A stretch of 43,639 bases of DNA from a virus (Duplodnaviria; Heunggongvirae; Uroviricota; Caudoviricetes): the IMG/VR virus record IMGVR_UViG_2617270952_000006; one strand, 5' to 3'. How positions within the stretch are numbered: the first letter of the stretch is position 1; every line of letters starts with the position of its first letter. The notes below the pieces were generated by a model. That model worked only from the letters and a program-made list of their open reading frames with translations, made no database searches and was not told the origin of the DNA. The translations under genes and the position numbers were made by a program. This document shows positions 1 through 42,829 of this stretch, one piece after another.

Positions 1-162
1 TGGCAACTGCAGTTCACTTACACCGCTTCTCAACCCGGTACGCACCAGAAAATCATTGATATGGCCATGAATGGCGTTGGATGCCGGGCAACTGCCCGCA
101 TTATGGGCGTTGGCCTCAACACGATTTTACGTCACTTAAAAAACTCAGGCCGCAGTCGGTAA
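1..162 (+). CDS. insA: IS1 InsA, 3' fragment (5' end outside window)
   Basis: Frame 1 from position 1 translates to the InsA C-terminal sequence ending [10 protein letters not shown] then TAA at 160-162. Confidence 0.7.
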
Positions 163-584
163 CCTCGCGCATACAGCCGGGCAGTGACGTCATCGTCTGC
201 GCGGAAATGGACGAACAGTGGGGCTATGTCGGGGCTAAATCGCGCCAGCGCTGGCTGTTTTACGCGTATGACAGTCTCCGGAAGACGGTTGTTGCGCACG
301 TATTCGGTGAACGCACTATGGCGACGCTGGGGCGTCTTATGAGCCTGCTGTCACCCTTTGACGTGGTGATATGGATGACGGATGGCTGGCCGCTGTATGA
401 ATCCCGCCTGAAGGGAAAGCTGCACGTAATCAGCAAGCGATATACGCAGCGAATTGAGCGGCATAACCTGAATCTGAGGCAGCACCTGGCACGGCTGGGA
501 CGGAAGTCGCTGTCGTTCTCAAAATCGGTGGAGCTGCATGACAAAGTCATCGGGTATTATCTGAACATAAAACACTATCAATAA
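81..584 (+). CDS. insB: IS1 transposase InsB reading frame (normally expressed as InsAB' fusion by -1 frameshift)
   Basis: ORF-track 167-aa product contains the InsB sequence (..[41 protein letters not shown]..). Confidence 0.8.
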
Positions 585-601
585 GTTGGAGTCATTACCA
601 G

Positions 602-715
602 CATTTTAAGGATCTCGAAGGTAAAATTGAAGAAAGGCTTCAAAATCGCCAGGCTGAATATCAAAATGAAATTAATCAACCATCTGCGCCAGGTGTTAAT
701 TTTGATGATATTTAA
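602..715 (+). pseudogene. 3' remnant of an ORF apparently truncated by the IS1 insertion
   Basis: Open frame begins directly at the IS1 end with no start codon or RBS and runs 38 codons to TAA at 713-715; a hairpin terminator follows. Confidence 0.35.
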
Positions 716-861
716 AATTATTTTTCCAGTTTTTTGATTTTTCAACAGCTGAATATCGGAAATAGTCAGTGACGAACATCAGTATTTTTACATAATTACG
801 TCTAGGTCATTGTCGGTTTATCTCCTTTTACTTGTGGTAATTGAGGGATAACAACAAAAAA

Positions 862-888
862 GGTGAGTTTTGCGACTCACCTTTTTTA
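862..888. terminator. Bidirectional rho-independent terminator between the truncated ORF and mlaA
   Basis: Perfect hairpin aggtgagt/actcacct (861-868 and 875-882) flanked by an A-run upstream and a T-run downstream. Confidence 0.55.
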
Positions 889-896
889 TTTGTTTC

Positions 897-1652
897 TTAT
901 TCAGAATCAATATCTTTTAAATCATCCTGAATCGCTTGTGCGTTCGGATTTTCCTGCGGTTTGAGTTCGCCGCCATTAGCGATGAAATCATGACGCTGGA
1001 AGTACGCTTCGCGCACCATAATATAAGGATCGGACGACTGACGCAGCAGACCATCGGAATCCAGCAGCTGAGCGCGGGTTTCGATCCCTTCAAGCGTCCA
1101 TTTACCCACAGACATCGGCCAGGTCAGCCAGGAAAGAACCGGGTAAAGACCATCCGCCATATCACCACCGTCATCACGCAGCGTGAAGCTACCGTAGAAC
1201 GGTAACTGAACGTAAGGCCCATAACCCACGCCATAATGACCAAGCGTACTACCGAAGCGGTGAGGTTCAGTCCGTTGCAGTTTCGGGTTCGCCATCCCTG
1301 CAACATCAATAAAACCGCCCATCCCCAAAATGGTGTTCAGGAAAAAGCGGGTAAAGTGGACCATCCCCTGATAAGGGTCGCCCTGCAAGAAGTAGTTAAC
1401 CATCACCGCAGGTTCTTCAAGGTTGCCAGTAAAGTTGCTCAAACCGTTACGCGCCGGTTGCGGAACATAATCACGCCAGGCGACAGCGACCGGTCGAACA
1501 ATATACGGGTCTAATACATTGAAGTTGAAGTTGTACATGGTGCGGTTGAACCCTTCTAACGGGTCAGAACGCCCTTGCTGATCTGTACCGGAACTCGCAC
1601 ACCCCACCAGAAGCGTAGTTCCCAGAGCAAGCGCCGACAGGCGAAGCTTCAT
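897..1652 (-). CDS. mlaA: MlaA (VacJ) outer-membrane lipoprotein, phospholipid asymmetry maintenance
   Basis: 251-aa product with lipoprotein signal (..LLVGCASSG) and sequence recognised as E. coli MlaA/VacJ; synteny with yfdC and argW as in E. coli K-12. Confidence 0.9.
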   Translation of the reverse strand: MKLRLSALALGTTLLVGCASSGTDQQGRSDPLEGFNRTMYNFNFNVLDPYIVRPVAVAWRDYVPQPARNGLSNFTGNLEEPAVMVNYFLQGDPYQGMVHFTRFFLNTILGMGGFIDVAGMANPKLQRTEPHRFGSTLGHYGVGYGPYVQLPFYGSFTLRDDGGDMADGLYPVLSWLTWPMSVGKWTLEGIETRAQLLDSDGLLRQSSDPYIMVREAYFQRHDFIANGGELKPQENPNAQAIQDDLKDIDSE

Positions 1653-1945
1653 AAATGTCTCCCTGTTTTTTTATGGCTTATGCAGTTTGCCATCCATGAC
1701 GGAACGATACCGTATCCGCCTGTTTAGGTGTGGGCGATTGTAACAGCACGTCAACTGATGTCCAGACGCCCTGATTTGCTGATTTGATCATAGCCTGGTA
1801 ATCGCCGCCCTGTAGGCTACTTGATTCTATAGAAACAGAAAAAGGCAAACGCAGCCTTTTCTACATTTTCAGAGTAACTCCCGTCAGTTGCGAGCAAAAA
1901 AGCCGCTACGCTTTAGCTATACGTGCTAATTCAAGAGAAGAGACC

Positions 1946-2878
1946 ATGGACAACGACAAAATTGATCAACACAGCGACGAAATTGAAGTTGAGAGCGAAG
2001 AAAAAGAGCGCGGCAAAAAAATAGAAATAGATGAAGACCGACTCCCCTCCCGGGCGATGGCAATTCATGAGCATATCCGCCAGGATGGTGAAAAAGAGCT
2101 GGAACGCGACGCAATGGCGCTACTGTGGTCAGCCATTGCGGCGGGGCTGTCGATGGGCGCTTCGTTACTGGCAAAAGGGATATTTCAAGTCGAACTGGAA
2201 GGTGTGCCGGGCAGCTTCTTGCTGGAGAATCTCGGTTATACCTTTGGTTTTATTATCGTCATTATGGCCCGCCAGCAATTATTTACCGAAAATACCGTGA
2301 CTGCGGTACTACCCGTCATGCAAAAACCGACAATGAGCAACGTCGGCTTACTTATACGGTTATGGGGCGTCGTGCTGCTGGGTAATATTCTCGGGACAGG
2401 TATTGCGGCGTGGGCATTTGAATATATGCCTATCTTCAATGAAGAAACTCGCGATGCATTTGTCAAAATCGGCATGGATGTGATGAAGAACACCCCCAGC
2501 GAGATGTTTGCCAACGCGATCATTTCCGGCTGGCTGATCGCCACTATGGTTTGGATGTTTCCTGCAGCGGGTGCGGCAAAGATTGTGGTGATTATATTGA
2601 TGACCTGGCTTATTGCCCTGGGTGACACCACCCATATCGTGGTCGGTTCTGTTGAAATCCTCTATCTGGTGTTTAACGGTACGCTGCACTGGAGCGATTT
2701 CATCTGGCCCTTCGCACTACCTACTTTAGCGGGGAACATCTGCGGCGGCACCTTTATCTTCGCGTTAATGAGTCATGCACAGATTCGTAACGACATGAGC
2801 AATAAGCGTAAAGCAGAAGCACGCCAAAAAGCAGAACGTGCGGAAAACATTAAGAAAAATTATAAAAACCCGGCATAA
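1946..2878 (+). CDS. yfdC: Formate/nitrite transporter family inner membrane protein YfdC
   Basis: 310-aa polytopic membrane protein; sequence and position between mlaA and argW match E. coli yfdC. Confidence 0.85.
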   Translation: MDNDKIDQHSDEIEVESEEKERGKKIEIDEDRLPSRAMAIHEHIRQDGEKELERDAMALLWSAIAAGLSMGASLLAKGIFQVELEGVPGSFLLENLGYTFGFIIVIMARQQLFTENTVTAVLPVMQKPTMSNVGLLIRLWGVVLLGNILGTGIAAWAFEYMPIFNEETRDAFVKIGMDVMKNTPSEMFANAIISGWLIATMVWMFPAAGAAKIVVIILMTWLIALGDTTHIVVGSVEILYLVFNGTLHWSDFIWPFALPTLAGNICGGTFIFALMSHAQIRNDMSNKRKAEARQKAERAENIKKNYKNPA

Positions 2879-2953
2879 ATGGCGAGGGTTTAAGCAATCG
2901 AGCGGCAGCGTACTTACCCCGCACTCCATTAGCGGGTATACTCATGCCGCATT

Positions 2954-3028
2954 GTCCTCTTAGTTAAATGGATATAACGAGCCCCTCCTAAGGGCTAATT
3001 GCAGGTTCGATTCCTGCAGGGGACACCA
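2954..3028 (+). tRNA. argW: tRNA-Arg (anticodon CCU)
   Basis: 75-nt sequence gtcctcttagttaaatggatataacgagcccctcctaagggctaattgcaggttcgattcctgcaggggacacca with anticodon loop ctCCTaa and 3' terminal CCA-like end; known integration site for Sf6/CUS-3/KplE1-type prophages. Confidence 0.9.
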
Positions 3029-3189
3029 TTTATCAGTTCGCTCCCATCCGTACCAGTCCGCAAAATCCCCTGAATATCAAGCCTTCCGTAGATTCACAGT
3101 TCGTAATGGTTCGCGTCAGATCGTTGACAGCCGCACTCCATGACGGGTAAAAAGTGGATAAAATAATTTTACCCACCGGATTTTTACCC

Positions 3190-4347
3190 ATGCTCACCGT
3201 TAAGCAGATTGAAGCAGCAAAGCCGAAAGAAAAACCATACCGCCTACTCGATGGTAATGGCCTGTACCTTTATGTCCCTGTGTCAGGGAAAAAGGTATGG
3301 CAGCTTCGCTACAAGATTGACGGTAAGGAGAAAATCCTGACCGTAGGAAAATATCCGCTAATGACTTTGCAGGAGGCAAGAGATAAAGCATGGACCGCGA
3401 GGAAAGACATCTCGGTTGGCATCGATCCGGTAAAAGCGAAAAAGGCTTCGTCTAACAACAATTCCTTTAGTGCAATTTACAAGGAATGGTACGAACACAA
3501 GAAGCAAGTCTGGTCAGTAGGGTATGCGACTGAACTTGCAAAAATGTTTGATGACGACATTTTACCCATCATCGGCGGTCTTGAGATTCAGGATATTGAG
3601 CCGATGCAACTGCTGGAAGTAATCCGCAGATTTGAAGATCGCGGTGCAATGGAGCGAGCCAACAAAGCCCGCAGAAGATGCGGCGAGGTTTTCCGTTACG
3701 CTATTGTCACTGGTAGGGCTAAATATAACCCGGCACCTGACCTTGCAGACGCCATGAAAGGATACCGCAAGAAGAACTTCCCGTTTCTTCCTGCAGACCA
3801 GATCCCTGCATTCAACAAAGCACTGGCAACATTTTCAGGAAGCATCGTATCGCTCATTGCGACCAAAGTTTTACGCTACACAGCCCTAAGAACGAAAGAG
3901 CTTCGTTCCATGCAATGGAAGAACGTCGATTTTGAAAACAGGATTATCACTATCGACGCCAGTGTGATGAAGGGCCGCAAGATTCATGTTGTTCCTATGT
4001 CAGACCAGGTGGTTGAACTTCTCACTACGCTAAGCTCCATCACTAAACCAGTATCAGAGTTTGTTTTTGCCGGGCGCAACGATAAGAAGAAGCCAATCTG
4101 CGAGAACGCGGTATTGCTTGTTATCAAACAAATCGGCTATGAGGGTCTGGAAAGCGGTCACGGATTCAGGCATGAATTCAGCACAATTATGAACGAGCAC
4201 GAATGGCCTGCTGACGCTATTGAAGTGCAACTGGCACATGCCAACGGCGGATCTGTGCGTGGAATTTACAACCATGCTCAGTATCTCGATAAGCGCAGAG
4301 AAATGATGCAGTGGTGGGCGGACTGGCTTGATGAAAAGGGGGAGTGA
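3190..4347 (+). CDS. intS: Tyrosine integrase, P4 family (IntS-like)
   Basis: 385-aa product from ATG 3190 (ORF track extends to 3154 from GTG); N-terminal arm-binding domain and C-terminal catalytic region (..HGFRHEF..LAHANG..RGIYNHAQY); immediately downstream of argW as in E. coli K-12 KplE1/CPS-53. Confidence 0.9.
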   Translation: MLTVKQIEAAKPKEKPYRLLDGNGLYLYVPVSGKKVWQLRYKIDGKEKILTVGKYPLMTLQEARDKAWTARKDISVGIDPVKAKKASSNNNSFSAIYKEWYEHKKQVWSVGYATELAKMFDDDILPIIGGLEIQDIEPMQLLEVIRRFEDRGAMERANKARRRCGEVFRYAIVTGRAKYNPAPDLADAMKGYRKKNFPFLPADQIPAFNKALATFSGSIVSLIATKVLRYTALRTKELRSMQWKNVDFENRIITIDASVMKGRKIHVVPMSDQVVELLTTLSSITKPVSEFVFAGRNDKKKPICENAVLLVIKQIGYEGLESGHGFRHEFSTIMNEHEWPADAIEVQLAHANGGSVRGIYNHAQYLDKRREMMQWWADWLDEKGE

Positions 4348-4438
4348 CCAACCTTAACCACTATCGGATAGTACAAAGCTTTGCAATCCAGACAAGGCTT
4401 TGTTTTGTCTAAGTTTGGTCACATTAGATGTGAAATCT

Positions 4439-6451
4439 TCAAATCAGCCCATAAATAACATTATGCAAATGAAGAGAGCCTGCTTCACCGGAAACATCAA
4501 AATCAATCCTAACTTTGCTTGCTCCAGGAGGAACAATATCTATTAATGCGTAGAAATTCCATGTGGAGCCTGATGGAATTGTAAATGTTGCTTTTCCCTG
4601 AACAGAGTTCCCTTCTTTATCAAAAAACTCAATACCAGAGATTGTTGTCACTTGATTCTTAGCCCAAAAACCTAACTGGAAATATCGTCCTGGTGAGCAG
4701 TCTGAGCACTCCTGATAAAATTTTGCAGATGCTCCTATAGATGGTATTGCTACATACAAAGACCTGGAAAACATAATATCATTTGGAACATCAGAATCCG
4801 TTCCTGCTGTAACAACACCTGAACCAGTTTGTTGAAGGCTCCAGTTAGAGTAGTTTAAAAACTGTCCACTTCCATTTGATAGCGAATTTATGTATGGACT
4901 AACTATGTTCCCTTTATCCCACTGAGTTGTTATAAATCCAGATCGTGGATAGCATCCATATGACATTATTTTTTTACTATTACCTCCAACTACCTGTCTA
5001 GTTGCTGATCCTGTCGCCAAATCCATTTGGTCAAATAAAGGCAATGAGCAATTTGTTAATGAAAGTACTGAATCATCATTTACAACAAACGGAACTGAAC
5101 TATATCCAGAGGGAGTAAGTAGCGTTGTATCTTTAATGCTTATTCTTGTGCTTCCAGATGCAGAGAACGCCACAAAGCTTTGACCTGGCTGAAACTCAAT
5201 ATTTCCACTTGAGTAAACAACGGTTGCGTTATCTTCAATAAAAACAGTAGAATCAAAATAACCTTCTTTCTTACCTGCTGGCATAGAGCAACAGTTAAAA
5301 ATAAATTGACCATTTCTAATTGTCAATGGACCTCCATTATCAACAACCCAACAATTATTAAATGTCATTACCTCGCCTGAGTTTGATGGAGAATTAAATA
5401 TAATTGTGTTGTTTAGACATCTTGATATTGTTACTTTGTCAAATAAAATTCTATATGAATTATCAAGAAACTCAATTCCAGCAGATGATATGAATGAAGA
5501 ATTACTTATTCTTAACTCTGATAATTCACCAGTGCCAATACCTCCAAGTAAAATCTTTTTAGATCCTAGCATCTTAAAAGATATGCCATCTAAAATTGAT
5601 GTTGCATTTATTTCATCCCTATTATCATAAGAAATATTAGAGTTACTTAACCTAATTGCATAATCACCTGATATCCCATTAATCTCAGTTAAAACGCATT
5701 TATTCGATCCTCTTAACCCACCTTTCGCGAAATCAATATCAATTAAAGACGAGAATTCTCCACTACATGGAACAACGCAATCATAACCTAGAGAGTTTAT
5801 TTTATTAATAAATAATGCAATATCCCCAGCGCCGCTGTAACCAGCGTCATATACAGAAAACTCAAGGCTTGGGTTTATTCTCTTCCAATTTACACCGTTA
5901 CCTTCTAAAACCATTACGTTATCAACTGCAATTGACTTGTCTACAGCTACAACAAACCCACCACCAAGTTCGAGTCCGGATACGTATGATTTTAAATATA
6001 ATTTATCAGATATCGACATTCCTTGTATATCTTTAAGGGAGTTAGCGCTCTCTACCATTCCAATGTATTTGTATCCAATATTACTTGATAGTTTTATAGA
6101 TAACTGATCAGGATCATACTTCAGCACATTAGGAAAATAGAACTGCTGCGCACCGTACGCATCATAAACAGCCATAGAATGGCCTTGCACGGTTACGAAT
6201 TTGGCAATCTGTCCGTTATATACCGGGTAACCAGCAGCGTTAATGATGATTGGTTGCGATACAGGAACGTGAGAACCGTCTTCGTTCTCTACATAAACCT
6301 GAATCTGGTTTTCAGGATTTACCGGGTCAGTGTCAATTTTTCCGATATAAATTTTGCCATTGGCATTTGCTTTAAACGAGCGAGCTAAAGTAAATAACTG
6401 ACTTGGTTGTGAAACAACAACGTTGTATAATTGTTCTGGCATAATAAACAT
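4439..6451 (-). CDS. Tailspike protein: P22 gp9-like N-terminal head-binding domain fused to a distinct beta-helix receptor-binding/depolymerase domain
   Basis: N-terminal ~110 aa align with P22 tailspike (..NVVVS.P...F...[34 protein letters not shown]....P.IINAAG...YNGQ......VQGHSMA.YDA.G.Q......NVLKYDPDQ); remainder is N/S/G-rich repeat-like sequence typical of parallel beta-helix; visibly A+T-rich. Confidence 0.85.
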
Positions 6452-8519: not shown

Positions 8520-8768
8520 ATGGCAAAGGGTGTGTCAATTTCTCCAACTACGGTAAGAATCCCTGAATCTTTACGCGAGGCTCTTGCTGTTAGAGCATCA
8601 AAAAATGGTCGCTCTGTTAACTCCGAGATCGTCATGATTTTGCAAGCCGCGATTGATGAAGATAGGTCGCCAAAGTCAGTTGAGTCATTTGCTCAGCAAG
8701 AAGCTGACAAATTCAAAGAGGCGCTGCTGGAGACGCTGAAAACCATGTATGGTAAGGATGATAAATAA
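8520..8768 (+). CDS. mnt: Mnt-like ribbon-helix-helix repressor
   Basis: 82-aa product with N-terminal RHH (..RIPESLREALAVRASKNGRSVNSEIV..) and C-terminal helical region, divergent from arc as in P22 immI. Confidence 0.75.
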   Translation: MAKGVSISPTTVRIPESLREALAVRASKNGRSVNSEIVMILQAAIDEDRSPKSVESFAQQEADKFKEALLETLKTMYGKDDK

Positions 8769-9304
8769 TGCTGCACACAATTCATTTCTTATGCCCCGTT
8801 AACACCGCCACTGTTGGGCAACTTCAGAACCACTGTCTCACCGCATTATCTCAAGGCGCAACTGAATTAAATATCCATATATCAAGTCAGGGAGGGGAAA
8901 CTGCCGCTGGTTTTACTGCGTATAACTTTCTTAAGTCACTCCCTGTTACCGTTAGAACTCACAACATAAGCAATGTTGAATCCATAGCTAATATCGTTTT
9001 CCTGGCTGGCTCAGAACGTTTCGCAAACCCATTATCAAGATTCCTGTTACATCCTCTATTATGGGGCTTTGCCTCCCCAGCCGCCGACCATGCCAGACTG
9101 AGAGAGTACGGGAAATGCCTCGATAACGATCTTGATCGCTTCGTTGAGACGTTCAATATCGACATCGGAACCCATATTAGGTGGGCATCCCTGATAGCAG
9201 ACTCGACCATTTTGGATGCTAACAAGGCTCTTGAGCATGGCATAATTAATTCCATAAAAACTGCAAGGCTGGCATCCAATCAGGCAAACTGGTGGGTTGT
9301 TTGA
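8768..9304 (+). CDS. ClpP-family (peptidase S14-like) serine peptidase homolog
   Basis: By-eye alignment to E. coli ClpP: IHISSQGGETAAG vs INSPGGVITAG; NVESIANIVFLAGSERFANPLSRFLLHPL vs [31 protein letters not shown] (candidate Ser and His aligned); start ATG overlaps mnt stop (TAATG). Confidence 0.65.
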   Translation: MLHTIHFLCPVNTATVGQLQNHCLTALSQGATELNIHISSQGGETAAGFTAYNFLKSLPVTVRTHNISNVESIANIVFLAGSERFANPLSRFLLHPLLWGFASPAADHARLREYGKCLDNDLDRFVETFNIDIGTHIRWASLIADSTILDANKALEHGIINSIKTARLASNQANWWVV

Positions 9305-14740: not shown

Positions 14741-15588
14741 TACTGCTCCGCGATTATCTTGATGGTTGTGGCAGTAAACGCCGCACCATTCGACTGAATG
14801 GTTAACGTGCTGCCATTTGTGGCAAGAAAGCCGTCTTTATCCACGCTGAAGAACGTAGCTAACAGGATGTTGTCGGTTGTTGTCGCCGCATTACGACTGC
14901 TGACCAACGTGTCAGGAACAGAGCCGGAAAAGGTTAGCTGCATTGACCTGTTGGCGGTTCCGCTGGGCCACGTCCCGACGATCGACAGCTTGAAGAACAA
15001 GGTTTTGTTCTCGTTGAACACAACCATCTTGTTGTTAACGGTGTCGAAGAATGGTGCCAACGTGCCGGATGACGGCGTGAGCGTTTTCAGCAGGCTAACA
15101 AGGTTGGTCGGCGCTGTCGGGATGGTTACAGATACGCCAGAGTAAACAACCTCTGACTTCTTGCGAGTAGTGGCATACTCCAGAGCATCGATGCGCGTTT
15201 CATGGTCTGAAAGCGTATTTTGAATGGCGACAACTTCATCCGTCAGGTAATCAATATCGTTTTCTGCTGTCGTTAATCGTGAATCAAGGCCGACTATCGC
15301 CGCTTCTGCGTTAGTGATCCTTGTTTCGTGGTCCTGAATCTTAGTTTCAGCTGATGCCAGTCGAATTTCGTGATCGACAAGAATCACATCCTGCTCATCG
15401 TTCCTGACTTGTGCGTCATAAGCGCCCTGTCCGGCCTCGTTGGCTTTGTTAGCCACGTTACCAACATCAGTGCCCTGTGCGATAACGTAAAGCAGATACG
15501 ACTGCGAGAAGATATTGCGTGGAAGGACTGATGTGTCGAGCCGTGTAGCCTGAATGATTACCGGCACATTGAGATTCGAATCCGCCAT
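14740..15588 (-). CDS. Tail needle (P22 gp26-like) with C-terminal knob domain
   Basis: N-terminus [62 protein letters not shown] closely parallels P22 gp26; 282 aa with extra C-terminal domain as in Sf6-type needles. Confidence 0.85.
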
Positions 15589-17015
15589 TACTCAATCCTT
15601 ATCTGAGCGCCAGACAGAGTGACAGGTGACTTCGTGATAACGCGCAATTTGAAGCCGACATTTTTCCTGATGCGTCCGACACGCTTCCACAAAACGCGTT
15701 TGTCGTAAACGAACGGTTCATTCTGCTCAATCATCTGCTCACGACCGTAATTGATGCCGTCAGTGGTTGCAGAGAGGAACAGGCGGTCAGCATACTGCGC
15801 AACACCAGTCGATGATTCCACCTCCAGATCAAAGCATCTGGCGTTATCCGCTTTGAACAACGGAGTAAACAGCAGGTGTTCCTGCTGCTTGTCGTACTGG
15901 CTGCTGATATCGAACTGTAATTTCCCGGTCACGGATTCCAGCTTATCGCCGCACGTTATCTGATTGCCTTCGTAAATGAAGTCGATAGCGCGGTACACAT
16001 CGTCATACAGTCCTGTTTTCAGTACGCACCATTGCGGACCATTGGCGCTTGAAGATGCGTCGTACACGAGAACATGGCGCGGAAGGTGGATAATCAGCAA
16101 CTCATGAGCATCAAATCGCAGCGATTCCATCACACCATCAGCCAGCTCATCAGCAGTGTAGGAGCGGAGTATTTTCTCAATGCTCGCGCTGGCGATTGGT
16201 GACACCTGACCGGAGCCGATAATGTATACAGACGGCGCACCCGTTGCCGGATTGCTGATAAACGCATAGGAATCAGCAAACGGCGTTTTGCAGTAAGTTC
16301 CGGCGATGCCTTTTTGCACCATCAGTGATGGCTGTGCGACATACAAAGCAGCACCAACGGTGGTTGCGCCAGTCAGGGAGAAATATTCAATCGTCGATGA
16401 ACCAAAGCAGACGATGAAGTCTCGCCATGTGCCGATACCGATGATGCCGTCCGGCTGCGACTCGGCACGATATTGTGCGCTGTAACGGTCAGGATGCGAT
16501 TCGTCTTCAAGGTCAGTGATAAACCATGAATCAGTGCCGTCTTTTGACCACGCATAACGCCCACGCAAGCGCGTAATGTCACGAACCGAACCTAACTCAT
16601 ACTGAGTGAATCCGCTATCTGCAGGCCAGTTTGAGACGGTTTTAACCGTTCCATCATAGCGATACTCGACCAGTTGACCATTAAAGCCTACAGCCTGAGA
16701 TGTTCGACCATGCGCCATTGATACGCGACCACTTCCGGCAACATCACCGACCTCGCTTTCGCCCTTATACAGCTTGCCACCACACACGCGATAAACAGCA
16801 TTCTGCGCCATGTTGTACTCGACGCCTCGCGATACGCCGTTCACATCAGAACGTTTGGCAATGCCCGGGAATGAGCGAAGATATCCCGATGAATTCAACA
16901 CCTCCTTGGGCGTAGCTAAAAGATTGACTGGAAGTTGGTCTATATAATCAGCATTAACCGAACTTTTCCCCAAGCCCTTCATTAGTGGTAGTTGTTGTAT
17001 TGCCATTGGAATCAA
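15588..17015 (-). CDS. Tail hub protein (P22 gp10-like)
   Basis: 475-aa product matching P22 gp10 along its length (..IQQLP.MKG.GK...[29 protein letters not shown]..); exact start uncertain. Confidence 0.9.
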
Positions 17016-17538
17016 CCTTTATATGAACCCAGTTAGCATCACGCTTTAGCCTACTTGCCCAGGTCTTAGATATCCCGTACTTAGCCGCAATTACTGACAA
17101 GCTTTCTTTTGATGACTTGATTGCAAGAACATCGTCATCACTCAACTTGTGTTTTGGGTGCTTGGTTCCGAAAAACTTGATTGGTTTCTTTAATCCGGTG
17201 GCGTATGCATGTTTTATGTTTTCGCTTTGAGTGCACCACTCAAGATTATTGACGTTATTATTGAGTGGATTGCCATCAATATGATTTACCTGAGGCTTGT
17301 TTTCAGGATTTGGCAGGAATGTCATTGCAACGATTCGATGGGCAAAAGTCCATTTTGCTCCGATATTATAAAGCACCCTTCCCTGATTGATTTTAGGCTT
17401 TAACCAGCGCCCCTTTCTGAGTTGCGTGCTGCCATGCGCAGCCTTAACAACACGTGAGTGAGAATATACCCTGCCATCTTCTGTTACGGCATAAACACCT
17501 TCAAATCCAGGTATATCTTTAGCATTCTCAGAAAGCAT
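16954..17538 (-). CDS. HNH homing endonuclease (free-standing, inserted between gp4 and gp10 genes)
   Basis: 194-aa product with ..IPGFEGVYAVTEDGRVYS.. N-terminal motif and HNH core ..NHIDGNPLNNNVNNLEWCTQSEN..; 3' end overlaps gp10 start by ~60 nt. Confidence 0.75.
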   Translation of the reverse strand: MLSENAKDIPGFEGVYAVTEDGRVYSHSRVVKAAHGSTQLRKGRWLKPKINQGRVLYNIGAKWTFAHRIVAMTFLPNPENKPQVNHIDGNPLNNNVNNLEWCTQSENIKHAYATGLKKPIKFFGTKHPKHKLSDDDVLAIKSSKESLSVIAAKYGISKTWASRLKRDANWVHIKVDSNGNTTTTTNEGLGEKFG

Positions 17539-17687
17539 ATCTACTCCTTAAAGTTTCGATTTTTCATGTACTTATTATATCAAAATTGCCAACATATTCA
17601 CTGGCAGATAGTCGATATAGTCGGCGTTTCGAAAGTCTTTGCCGACACCTTTCATAAGCGGAAGTTGCTGAATAGTCATTTATTCAC

Positions 17688-18170
17688 CTATGCGTTTGGG
17701 ATATCGCCATCAATCAGAGGGAGATCGCGTGGATAATATCGGTCAGATGTGAACACGTCATATTTATTACCCTGTCCTACAGGAAAATCTCCACGTCGTC
17801 GTATTGAAGGAACAACCAGAGTGTCGGTCATCAAGGCATCATATGAGCGTTGGGCGTTACTGAGAACTTGCGGAGTTGGTTCAAGGCTGTAATCAGATAG
17901 CATTCTCAGCAATAACTGATAGCCTACAGCGTGTTTGTATTTTCTTGGAAGACCTGACTCATCATCTGGTAATGGCTGCTCATCTCCAGTTGCGAAAGCG
18001 TAACCAATGTCGCCGGGGTTAATCATCCACTCGGACATCATATCTTCCAGATCAATTACACCATCTTCAATTGATTGCGGCTCAACATCAGTCAGCGATG
18101 CATTAGAAGCAATAGCAAACTTACGAAGCGCAAAAAGGACGATCTCACCCTTTGTCAGTACTGTTGCCAT
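17688..18170 (-). CDS. Head completion / tail adaptor protein (P22 gp4-like)
   Basis: 160-aa product in conserved position after coat gene, similar size to P22 gp4. Confidence 0.8.
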   Translation of the reverse strand: MATVLTKGEIVLFALRKFAIASNASLTDVEPQSIEDGVIDLEDMMSEWMINPGDIGYAFATGDEQPLPDDESGLPRKYKHAVGYQLLLRMLSDYSLEPTPQVLSNAQRSYDALMTDTLVVPSIRRRGDFPVGQGNKYDVFTSDRYYPRDLPLIDGDIPNA

Positions 18171-29052: not shown

Positions 29053-29411
29053 ACGTTCTCCAGTTCGGTGATTTTTATTCCAAGCCTTCCGCCTGGTACT
29101 TTCACGCCACGAATTACGCGAATGTCATCGAATTGCTCGTCGTCTTCCGCAAATCCGGCGTGGATAAGGGAGTCGAGTAAACCTTTAAGAATGTTGTCGA
29201 GGTCGCGGCGGCGGGAGTCTGGAACGTCTGCGATGACTTTGATTCGTAGTCGTGATTTGGTGAAAATGTCTAACTTGAGTTGGCGGATGATTTGCTGAAC
29301 GTCTTTTCGGTATTTCTGGCCTTTATCGCTGATGTAGTATTGGCTTCCCCGTCTTCGCCAGTAGGTGTTCACCGACGGCGGGTATGGAAGCACAAACTGA
29401 TATTCGTTCAT
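29049..29411 (-). CDS. rusA: Holliday junction resolvase RusA
   Basis: 120-aa product MNEYQFVLPYPPSVNTYWRRRG..DVPDSRRRDLDNILKGLLDSL.. matches RusA family. Confidence 0.85.
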   Translation of the reverse strand: MNEYQFVLPYPPSVNTYWRRRGSQYYISDKGQKYRKDVQQIIRQLKLDIFTKSRLRIKVIADVPDSRRRDLDNILKGLLDSLIHAGFAEDDEQFDDIRVIRGVKVPGGRLGIKITELENV

Positions 29412-29698
29412 GACTTAATCTTCCCCTCCTTCAGCAGTATCGCCTGCGTCCTGATCACGCCTTCGAGGTGGTAAAGTCTGGCGTCTTTGTTGTCGAGATT
29501 ATAGGTGCGTCGGTCGATTTCATCGTGACACGCGCTACAAGCCCATGCGCCGATCAGGTCGTCAGGCTTCATTCCCGTTCCGCAAATTCCAGCCATCCGG
29601 TAATGTGCCAGAACTGTAGTTTCAGGATTGCCATTGCATACGCCGTAAATACGTACCTGGCATTCTCTGCCGCGTGCTTCTTTGCGTAGATTAGCCAT
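29408..29698 (-). CDS. DUF1364 (YbcO-like) Cys-rich putative nuclease
   Basis: 96-aa product with conserved Cys/His pattern (..CQVRIYGVCNGNPETTVLAHYR..CSACHDEID..); nin-region position. Confidence 0.6.
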   Translation of the reverse strand: MANLRKEARGRECQVRIYGVCNGNPETTVLAHYRMAGICGTGMKPDDLIGAWACSACHDEIDRRTYNLDNKDARLYHLEGVIRTQAILLKEGKIKS

Positions 29699-42028: not shown

Positions 42029-42829
42029 ATGACCATCCACTTTCACGGCAGCCCAATATGGGGTGATGAGCATGCCCCTACAGATATGCTGATTAAAGCC
42101 CTTTACCGTGATGGTGGGGCTTTTGTTTCATTTGCCAGACCAGAGCAGATGAAAAAGATTGCCATGTTCCCTTGTGATATACGCCTTGATAACGGTGCTT
42201 TTAGCGACTGGATGAAAGCATTAAAGAAAGGCACTCCGGTAGACTGGAGTAAGAGACGAGCAAAATTCTACGACTTTGTTGGGACGTGGTTCAGCAGAAT
42301 TGAATGGTTTCTTATACCTGACGTTATCGAAGGGACAGAGGCAGAAAACGACGAGCAGATTGAGTTGGTTCCTGATTGGCTAAAATCAAAAGCGGTTCCG
42401 GTCTGGCATACCGACGAATCAATTGAACGTCTTTTACGCCTTTCTGGCAAATTTGAATGGGTGGCGATTGGATGCTGCGGCCCACACAGGCACATACGCT
42501 CTAAATGGTGGGAACAGAGAATGGATGAAGTTTTTACTGAGATTTATATCAATCGTAATTTGAAAGTGAAAATTCATGGTCTTCGAATGCTCGACGTGAG
42601 AGTTCTTGGTATGTATCCGTTCGCCAGTGCGGATTCTACTAATGTTGCTGTTAACGTACCGAAGACAGAGAAGCGATTTCCTGAGATTACCGACAAACTG
42701 GCACGTACAGCTGTACTTCGCGCAGCTATTGAAAAGGTGCACCCACCATCGATATCAGCATGGGTAGACAGAAAGAGGAGAGAGCCGGCGCAAGCCGGTT
42801 TTTTATTTGAATTCACCGACGCCGCTTAA
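42029..42829 (+). CDS. Hypothetical 266-aa protein (moron-like cassette)
   Basis: Stand-alone ORF bounded on both sides by hairpin/T-tract elements; no motif confidently recognised. Confidence 0.6.
   Translation: MTIHFHGSPIWGDEHAPTDMLIKALYRDGGAFVSFARPEQMKKIAMFPCDIRLDNGAFSDWMKALKKGTPVDWSKRRAKFYDFVGTWFSRIEWFLIPDVIEGTEAENDEQIELVPDWLKSKAVPVWHTDESIERLLRLSGKFEWVAIGCCGPHRHIRSKWWEQRMDEVFTEIYINRNLKVKIHGLRMLDVRVLGMYPFASADSTNVAVNVPKTEKRFPEITDKLARTAVLRAAIEKVHPPSISAWVDRKRREPAQAGFLFEFTDAA

Follow-up and report, generated by a model that had tools for sequence, protein, structure and literature searches.

The 43,639-nucleotide stretch analyzed here (IMG/VR virus record IMGVR_UViG_2617270952_000006; hereafter the window) is a P22/Sf6-like integrated prophage adjoining host genes, and it carries an HNH endonuclease gene between gp4 and gp10, on the same strand as both. 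We propose, as the probable explanation of a series of sequence comparisons, that this gene belongs to a free-standing, intron-less homing cassette of the I-HmuI type, which sits inside the essential head-completion gene gp10, after its codon 31, and replaces the end of the gene that it interrupts. At the head of the cassette is a leader that holds a TGnTATAAT motif and a strong ribosome-binding site. The HNH gene follows, its last codons containing both a Shine-Dalgarno-like sequence and the ATG of gp10, and replacement gp10 codons 1-40 complete the cassette. Because it brings in this replacement 5′ end, the essential gp10 gene survives the insertion. The features of the locus are as follows.

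17688..18170, minus strand: gp4, encoding the head-tail adaptor (P22_Tail-4), intact; Pfam PF11650, E=6.7e-73
17572..17679, minus strand: native gp10 5′ stub of 34 codons, with ATG at 17679 opening 31 native codons (17679-17587), followed by ILI and two TAA stops
16914..17586, minus strand: 673-bp insert missing from empty-site relatives, comprising the distal leader, the HNH gene and duplicated gp10 codons 1-31
17574..17582, minus strand: extended -10 (TGnTATAAT) promoter-like motif TGATATAAT in the cassette leader, as read from the sequence
17539..17566, minus strand: proximal leader AATCGAAAC...AAGGAGTAGAT; its strong Shine-Dalgarno sequence, AAGGAG (17549-17544), lies 5 nt ahead of the HNH ATG
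16954..17538, minus strand: HNH endonuclease gene, encoding a NUMOD4 domain, an HNH beta-beta-alpha-metal motif (N85 H86 ... N98 ... N107), a three-helix C-terminal domain (amino acids 134-165) and a tail of 19-20 amino acids outside the family
16954..17006, minus strand: two-frame coding overlap of 53 nt, with HNH tail amino acids 177-194 and gp10 codons 1-18
16887..17006, minus strand: replacement gp10 5′ segment (codons 1-40), which the cassette contributes; joined in frame to native-type gp10, it spans the former insertion site
15588..17006, minus strand: functional gp10, 472 amino acids, 1419 nt, the same length as Sf6 gene 8; Pfam PF11134, E=4e-298

The insertion lies within gp10, after codon 31

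The initial annotation of this DNA, made from the sequence alone, had the HNH gene splitting the gp4-gp10 junction. The alignment with Sf6 that it suggested for placing the insertion was run and gave a different position. The window was 99.1% identical to Sf6 up to 17588, and the native gp4/gp10 junction was intact at 17688/17679, with the gp4 stop codon, 8 nt and the gp10 ATG arranged as in Sf6. Beyond this junction, the stub aligned base for base with gp10 nt 1-93 of Sf6, vB_EcoP-611R6 and HF4s, and it retained the native GGTG ribosome-binding site ahead of ATG 17679. Homology to these genomes resumed inside gp10, which places the insertion point after codon 31. The corresponding region measured 1201 nt in the window and 528 nt in Sf6, HK620 and other empty-site phages; the exact junction of the insert is ambiguous by 1-2 nt at GC(A/T).

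The 34-codon stub (17679..17572) had been overlooked in the initial annotation, as had the diverged replacement origin of gp10 codons 1-40. We regard the stub as a pseudogene, encoding at most a 34-amino-acid peptide, and the Prokaryotic Genome Annotation Pipeline (PGAP) labels the equivalent 93 bp 'packaged DNA stabilization protein, incomplete, missing C-terminus'. The first 41 nt of gp10 are shared with gp4 in genomes of the P22 type, where retention of the stub therefore also preserves the whole of gp4. It should be added that an inverted repeat (TGCCAGTGAATATGTTGGCA then ATTTTGATAT, 17587-17606, minus strand) straddles the left junction. A scan classed it as terminator-like; its stem is weak, with 3 G-C pairs, and its T-run is confined to the occupied allele.

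The HNH gene encodes an I-HmuI-type endonuclease

The ATG-started open reading frame (ORF) of 194 amino acids proved to be a real gene on ORF checking, and its assignment as an HNH endonuclease in the initial annotation was borne out by matches in Pfam and PDB. The NUMOD4 domain (PF07463) was found at amino acids 7-53 (E=1.3e-8; 35.3 bits vs. a curated cut-off of 23.4) and HNH_3 (PF13392) at amino acids 65-107 (E=1.9e-10; 40.6 vs. 24.8 bits). Pfam also identified its same-strand neighbours as gp4 (PF11650) upstream and gp10 (PF11134) downstream. The sole significant PDB match by sequence was I-HmuI of phage SPO1 (1u3e; E=1e-8), with the DH...N...N motif aligned, and residues N85, H86, N98 and N107 were invariant across an alignment of 52 homologues.

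An AlphaFold2 model built on these 52 homologues had a predicted local distance difference test score (pLDDT) of 87, with predicted C-terminal helices at amino acids 134-142, 147-154 and 158-165. When this model was submitted to Foldseek, 1u3e_M was again the only match at E<0.001 (E=8e-7, 190 columns). The template-modelling score to 1u3e_M was just 0.43-0.48, a low value that we attribute to an elongated multi-domain protein having been modelled without DNA. By its domains, its motif and its overall predicted fold, the HNH ORF is an I-HmuI-type NUMOD4/HNH_3 endonuclease. No group I intron, nor any other Rfam family, was detected at E<=1 between 16700 and 17900. The HNH ORF is moreover out of frame with gp10, which is restored via duplication and not by splicing, so that the gene is neither intron-borne nor part of an intein.

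Functional gp10 starts inside the HNH ORF from a rewritten 5′ end

The first 40 codons of functional gp10 differed from those of Sf6 at 46 of 120 nt (38%), with 23 codons changed synonymously and 8 nonsynonymously, while codons 41-80 differed at 2 of 120 nt. The divergence from native gp10 extends 27 nt past the duplicated part. Within the window itself, the two copies of the gp10 start had 61 of 93 nt in common. The mobile unit amounts to about 700 bp (17586-16887), replacing gp10 codons 1-40 and leaving the native start behind as the stub.

The gp10 start at ATG 17006 aligns with the native Met1 and did not vary among the 38 alleles compared. In E. coli prophages, PGAP also annotates this 1419-nt gp10. 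The ORF listing had given TTG 17015 as the start (a 62-nt overlap), and this candidate was ruled out because the codon is CTG in 5 of the 38 alleles. The overlap of the HNH 3′ end with the gp10 start, put at about 60 nt in the initial annotation, is therefore real and measures 53 nt. It exists because the HNH frame has no stop codon before the replacement gp10 start. Related HNH proteins end in W(R/V)H(V/L)*, aligned with WVHI here, and the present protein runs 19-20 residues further. The phrog_59 profile of the PHROG database matched amino acids 1-176 only, and amino acids 185-194 had a pLDDT <50 in the model, with predicted disorder. All three polymorphisms found in the overlap were nonsynonymous in HNH and two of the three were synonymous in gp10. 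The HNH tail in the overlap looks like unconstrained read-through.

It had also been suggested that gp10 translation is coupled to that of HNH or initiated inside it. The start does lie inside the HNH ORF; coupling, on the other hand, appears unlikely. A Shine-Dalgarno-like AAAGG (17020-17016) occurs 9 nt upstream of ATG 17006, and GGAG or GAGGTG is found at the same place in the diverged cassettes described below. RNA structure around the gp10 start was no better than in shuffled sequences (z=0.05), and on this ground we dropped the unmasking of a structure as a means of coupling gp10 to HNH translation. Lastly, termination-reinitiation is unlikely, given the 53 nt by which the gp10 start precedes the HNH stop codon. 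Initiation of gp10 inside the HNH ORF is probably independent.

Occupied and empty alleles at one precise site

The phage set that we searched held 50,697 records, 86 of which matched the flanks of the cassette. The cassette itself was present, at 98.6% identity, in Salmonella phage UPF_BP1 alone (two records), which has been submitted as a complete genome together with the name of its Salmonella host. We also found the insert in 18 of the 915 complete E. coli genomes having the gp4-gp10 region and in 28 IMG/VR contigs. The copies at this site in UPF_BP1, E. coli and IMG/VR were at least 98% identical; one IMG/VR contig (2617270968_000007) differed by a single nucleotide in the 768-nt cassette region compared. 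All 39 occupied sequences examined, some of them redundant, had the identical left junction and 31-codon stub. The site was empty in Sf6, HK620, 611R6, HF4s, As3 and 19 further alleles. The cassette is thus present or absent at one precise site among homologous genomes, which is how a mobile element behaves. The initial annotation had envisaged being wrong if the gp10 start were mis-assigned and the HNH ORF present throughout the lineage with no disrupted target; the start is correctly assigned, and the element is sporadic and its target disrupted.

The cassette was found behind three unrelated types of gp4, Sf6-like (483 nt), CUS-3-like (462 nt) and P22-like (501 nt), and the HNH ORF was intact in 37 of 38 alleles. 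In the exception, E. coli ES5 (L007:1863-2446), a 1-nt deletion breaks the HNH gene into two ORFs. The stub also varies: that of E. coli LD39-1 (L013:1511-1604) is frameshifted by a 1-nt insertion and that of another allele has a missense change. A search for the exact junction pattern in a contig set with one genome per species gave 0 matches; the element is too rare to show up among species representatives. We found no description of a gp10-internal HNH locus in the literature on HNH homing endonucleases of P22-like phages or on UPF_BP1.

The GenBank record of UPF_BP1 (KX776161) leaves the stub unannotated and gives gp10 as 1311 nt (L001:3283-4593), from a downstream Met after the HNH stop codon, a shortening that avoids the overlap with HNH. 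The full 1419-nt gp10 of this phage starts about 108 nt upstream of the annotated start, inside the HNH ORF.

Signs of movement and selection

We computed nucleotide diversity among 34 occupied alleles. It stood at 0.036 for the stub and dropped to 0.004 for the leader, 0.0055 for HNH, 0.012 for the overlap and 0.002 for the remaining replacement segment, before rising to 0.047-0.078 just downstream in gp10. Diversity was therefore about ten times lower inside the cassette than in either flank, with sharp steps at both borders. The nearest native-type polymorphisms lay 6 nt from the left junction and about 17 nt from the right border. The low diversity of the cassette, together with flank polymorphism right up to its edges, points to a near-uniform cassette that lies in many backgrounds, with crossovers at its edges.

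A breakpoint of this kind is visible in UPF_BP1, which was 100.0% identical over 3595 nt to Salmonella phage As3 (empty site), the identity ending exactly at the left junction. To the right of the junction, identity of UPF_BP1 fell to 83% with As3, and was 95.2% with HK620, 95-96.5% with E. coli prophages and 85.8% with the best Salmonella phage. The position of this breakpoint fits the reported tendency of nuclease genes to lie at boundaries of genetic exchange between phages (PMC10448857). In the HNH-only part we counted 12 synonymous vs. 6 nonsynonymous polymorphisms, which indicates purifying selection on the enzyme.

The architecture of the cassette is conserved in diverged lineages

A protein search yielded relatives of the HNH protein that were 83, 82, 72 and 69% identical (192-203 amino acids), encoded on contigs of more distant P22-like phages or prophages. 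All four diverged lineages had the same layout: gp4, a gp10 stub of 26-31 codons ending in ...LPVNML, the TGnTATAAT motif, the leader (AATCGAAAC...GGAGTAGAT), HNH and a full-length gp10 reading ...LP(V/T)N(L/C)LATPKEVLN. The HNH/gp10 overlap was 29-53 nt by called gene starts, and 47-53 nt in three of the lineages. One lineage (L127; Logan ERR14928264 contig, 3560-5353) has a gp10 of 597 and not 472 amino acids and a stub cut at about codon 26, and in it the gene caller starts the HNH ORF 9 codons early, inside the leader. The architecture of the cassette is old, since orthologues at 69-83% amino acid identity have one layout in common. The earlier description of a recent mobile-element insertion into an essential operon holds in so far as the element is sporadic, with precise empty sites; 'recent' fits only the spread of the E. 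coli/Salmonella version.

In the leader, the TGnTATAATAA block was invariant in the five cassette lineages (HNH 69-83% identical), as were the AATCGAAAC and GGAGTAGA blocks. The TGnTATAAT motif is a perfect match to the extended -10 consensus and may function as a promoter. A sigma-70 consensus scan that required a -35 hexamer called no promoter in the cassette leader. The proximal leader was kept in all five lineages and is common to paralogous HNH genes at the gp10/gp26 junction.

These paralogues form two NUMOD4-HNH groups (55% and 43% identical to the present protein) and lie, in other P22-like phages, past the gp10 stop and ahead of the gp26 ATG, at the following loci.

L043:2477-3040 (IMG/VR): paralogous HNH locus
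L062:2477-3028: paralogous HNH locus
Phage HZ41, OM022251, 35629-36165: paralogous HNH locus
L010:3835-4201 (E. coli K56-43-un): paralogous HNH locus

They share the proximal leader (ATCGAAACT.AAGGAGTAGATATG) and the operon with the present HNH gene and are sporadic too. They are clean intergenic insertions whose stop codon overlaps the gp26 start (TAATG), and a check for gene-end duplication was negative; they also lacked the TGnTATAAT motif and the C-terminal extension. The E. coli prophage K56-43-un has both a gp10-internal cassette and an HNH gene of the gp10/gp26 type. The first 46 amino acids of the present HNH protein (window 17401-17538) are nearly identical to those of the 55% group (87% nucleotide identity with L043:2501-2640), the rest being about 45% identical. 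The contrast suggests that endonuclease genes with different targets have recombined or swapped domains.

A proposed model for homing into gp10

On the explanation that we favour, the HNH enzyme would recognize conserved native sequence at about gp10 codons 25-40 (...CTGCCAGTGAATATGYTGGCWACNCCCAAAGAAATCCT...) in cassette-free relatives and would nick or cut it there. In repair from a cassette-bearing genome, the stub could then serve as left homology arm and gp10 past codon 40 as right arm, the cassette being copied in between. The occupied allele would be immune, since the insertion interrupts the presumed target in the stub and the replacement copy has it in rewritten form. The presumed target region, GACTATATCGACTATCTGCCAGTGAATATGYTGGCWACNCCCAAAGAAATCCTNAACAGCAGC, was strongly conserved in 19 empty alleles; in occupied genomes, the stub breaks off at the insertion point, and the replacement copy differs from the native sequence at many positions.

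The first event was probably an illegitimate joining of a broken gp10 end to phage DNA in which an endonuclease gene lay directly upstream of a diverged gp10. Neither the phage records nor IMG/VR yielded this putative ancestor. A tblastn search of the 50,697 phage records with the 54-amino-acid replacement peptide, looking for a cassette-free source of the gp10 start, gave a best match of 85% besides UPF_BP1. When a degenerate DNA pattern for the replacement peptide was run against IMG/VR, all 28 matching contigs had it adjoining the HNH gene. A protein search with the short replacement peptide returned 19 short fragments only and was uninformative.

Several points weigh against homing into gp10 as the explanation. 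Cleavage, nicking and homing of gp10 by the HNH enzyme are deduced from sequence patterns, and the target site solely from the position of the insertion and the pattern of rewriting. A cassette-free phage with a replacement-type gp10 start was not found among the phage records or in IMG/VR, and the promoter is a putative one, a conserved match to the consensus that went uncalled in the promoter scan. I-HmuI nicks DNA, and homing initiated by a nick is less efficient than homing initiated by a double-strand break. The occupancy of about 2% in E. coli prophages could stem from weak drive, from a cost or from inheritance that is mostly passive. Finally, P22-like phages are mosaic, and ordinary recombination could yield part of the diversity pattern and of the UPF_BP1 breakpoint. 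Having weighed these points, we still consider homing into gp10 the likely explanation.

More speculatively, the combination of promoter, leader, HNH gene and rewritten 5′ end with a translation start of its own might represent an undescribed class of phage homing element, a self-contained cassette able to enter the interior of an essential structural gene without intron, intein or splitting of that gene. Such an element would have persisted across P22-like phages of several host groups and, if expressed in lysogens from its extended -10 promoter, would act in addition as a weapon, cutting gp10 of incoming cassette-free relatives and forcing recombination there. We offer this broader proposal tentatively and would not bet on it.

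Alternative explanations

The endonuclease could be kept chiefly for competition, damaging co-infecting or superinfecting cassette-free P22-like phages, maybe through expression in the lysogen, with homing as a by-product of marker exclusion. We consider this possible, if somewhat doubtful. It would account for the conservation of TGnTATAAT upstream of HNH in five cassette lineages, in a late operon otherwise needing no promoter there, and the window, with host genes at 1-2900 and an integrase at 3154-4347, is indeed a prophage. Members of the I-HmuI family are also said, with reference to work of Goodrich-Blair and Shub in 1996, to be the classic endonucleases that favour flanking markers in mixed infection. 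Nevertheless, the promoter is putative and the gp10/gp26 paralogues do without the motif. The mechanism would in any case be the same as that of homing, so that the homing explanation stays compatible with this role.

A passive origin seems improbable. The cassette would in that case be a mosaic module, formed once by illegitimate recombination and spread by ordinary homologous recombination in the flanks, with no inheritance driven by HNH at present. P22-like late operons are mosaic, and gp10 downstream of the cassette differs in patches from its various relatives, at 1-9 positions per 60 nt; the cassette is, besides, found in just 18 of 915 genomes, and one allele has a frameshifted HNH gene. 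Such a module would not be expected to keep HNH intact in 37 of 38 alleles with the excess of synonymous polymorphism described above, nor to retain the enzyme and the layout across 69-83% divergence. The tenfold drop in diversity, with its border steps and with flank polymorphism as close as 6 nt to the junction, would further need many crossovers at heterology, as in conversion initiated by a break.

Two further explanations can be set aside as highly implausible. A simple intergenic insertion between gp4 and gp10 with coupled gp10 translation, or its variant in which gp10 starts at a downstream Met without overlap, as the UPF_BP1 depositor had it, agrees with the gene order gp4-HNH-gp10 on one strand and with the 1311-nt gp10 after the HNH stop in that record, but it is contradicted by the presence, upstream of the HNH gene, of the native gp10 start with 31 codons, by the alignment of all 472 residues of gp10 from Met1 (17006) with the native protein, by the invariance of the ATG and the silence in gp10 of 2 of the 3 changes in the overlap, and by the 53 nt from the gp10 start to the HNH stop, too far for termination-reinitiation. 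The same very low probability attaches to a gene in pieces, in which the 34-amino-acid stub peptide and the downstream protein would assemble as gp10 like the endonuclease-split nrdA of Aeh1: the stub keeps an ATG, a ribosome-binding site and a mostly intact protein sequence across alleles, and it overlaps gp4 in P22-type genomes, but the downstream gene encodes all 472 residues, so that the stub, a duplicate of residues 1-31, is redundant and not complementary; one stub is frameshifted, one has a missense change and that of L127 is cut at about codon 26, and the variation among stubs resembles native gp10 polymorphism brought in by recombination.

Other features of the window

Outside the late operon, the prophage borders on the host chromosome through its integrase gene.

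1-3100: host chromosome, with an IS1 transposase fragment, MlaA and a formate/nitrite-transporter homologue
3154-4347: prophage integrase, adjoining the host chromosome

We noted a ClpP-like protease ORF at 8768-9304 (plus strand; PF00574, E=5e-12), near the antirepressor/tailspike end, and a 266-amino-acid ORF at 42029-42829 (plus strand) that matched the PHROG queuine tRNA-ribosyltransferase family (E=5e-102). The initial annotation had counted the gp10-associated gene as the second HNH endonuclease of the window. There is no other of the NUMOD4 type: the only candidate was a weak tblastn match (E=0.02) inside the tailspike gene, which is spurious. The first was probably a 96-amino-acid ORF in the nin region (29408..29698, minus strand), which matches phrog_131, 'HNH endonuclease' (E=6e-49), and is unrelated to the NUMOD4 type.

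Discussion

To our knowledge, free-standing homing endonucleases of phages have been thought either to keep to intergenic spots, or to depend on an intron or intein, or to break up the host gene. The gp10 locus would add a fourth solution, in a phage group that has been well studied: a spare, target-immune start of the gene comes along with the element. With a cassette of about 700 bp, empty targets in Sf6, HK620 and P22, and a sequenced carrier in UPF_BP1, it offers a compact model for intron-less homing into coding sequence. It should also be useful for studying how a new translation start arises inside another ORF and how endonucleases set mosaic boundaries in phages of Salmonella and E. 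coli. Annotation of the locus is at present inconsistent, gp10 being shortened in UPF_BP1 and the stub treated as a partial pseudogene by PGAP, and recognition of the pattern would prevent mis-calling of an essential gene.

The closest structural relative is I-HmuI (SPO1, PDB 1U3E), with which the present protein shares its domain order, a NUMOD4 beta-sheet followed by HNH and a C-terminal helical DNA-binding domain, over a core of about 175 amino acids. Identity between the two is about 25%. Where I-HmuI has an Asp before the catalytic His, the present protein has N85, which is invariant in the subfamily, and it alone has the unconstrained tail of 19-20 amino acids. I-HmuI is encoded within a group I intron of the DNA polymerase gene, whereas here there is no intron and the 5′ end of the gene has been duplicated and rewritten. 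The gp10/gp26 paralogues, 43-55% identical and in the same operon, differ in being clean intergenic insertions with no duplication.

The free-standing endonucleases of T4-type phages (SegF, SegG, MobE) practise what has been called 'intronless homing', with co-conversion of flanks, overlapping ORFs and a target in a neighbouring gene (PMC2988022). The present gene resembles them in being free-standing within an operon, with a presumed target in a neighbouring essential gene of endonuclease-less relatives. These endonucleases usually lie between genes and overlap the upstream ORF, whereas the gp10 cassette lies inside the coding sequence and supplies the part that it replaces. Closer in position are nrdA/mobE of Aeh1 and gene 60/mobA of T4, in which an endonuclease gene lies within an essential coding region without intron or intein and the host protein is made as two polypeptides (PMC2988022). 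Both have in common with gp10 a free-standing endonuclease in an essential coding region, but their polypeptides are complementary and reassemble, while here gp10 is complete and the displaced 5′ end is redundant.

The nearest parallel to the replacement of a gene end may come from fungal mitochondria. In atp6 of Allomyces (Paquin et al. are said to have described it in 1994) and, reportedly, in rps3 of Ophiostoma (a case associated with Sethuraman et al., 2009), an endonuclease ORF has entered a coding sequence and brought a copy of the displaced 3′ end with it. In these cases the foreign or duplicated terminal segment reportedly restores a full gene and the native end is left as a pseudogene, just as at gp10. 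They involve the 3′ end, LAGLIDADG or GIY-YIG enzymes, often an in-frame fusion, and organelles; the present locus involves the 5′ end, an HNH enzyme, an out-of-frame overlap of 53 nt, a new start inside the endonuclease ORF and a temperate enterobacterial phage. Taking gene-end replacement as a class, as reported for these mitochondrial examples, the gp10 locus is by our analysis a member of it: a stub (17679-17587) and replacement codons 1-40 (17006-16887) occur together, strictly linked to HNH.

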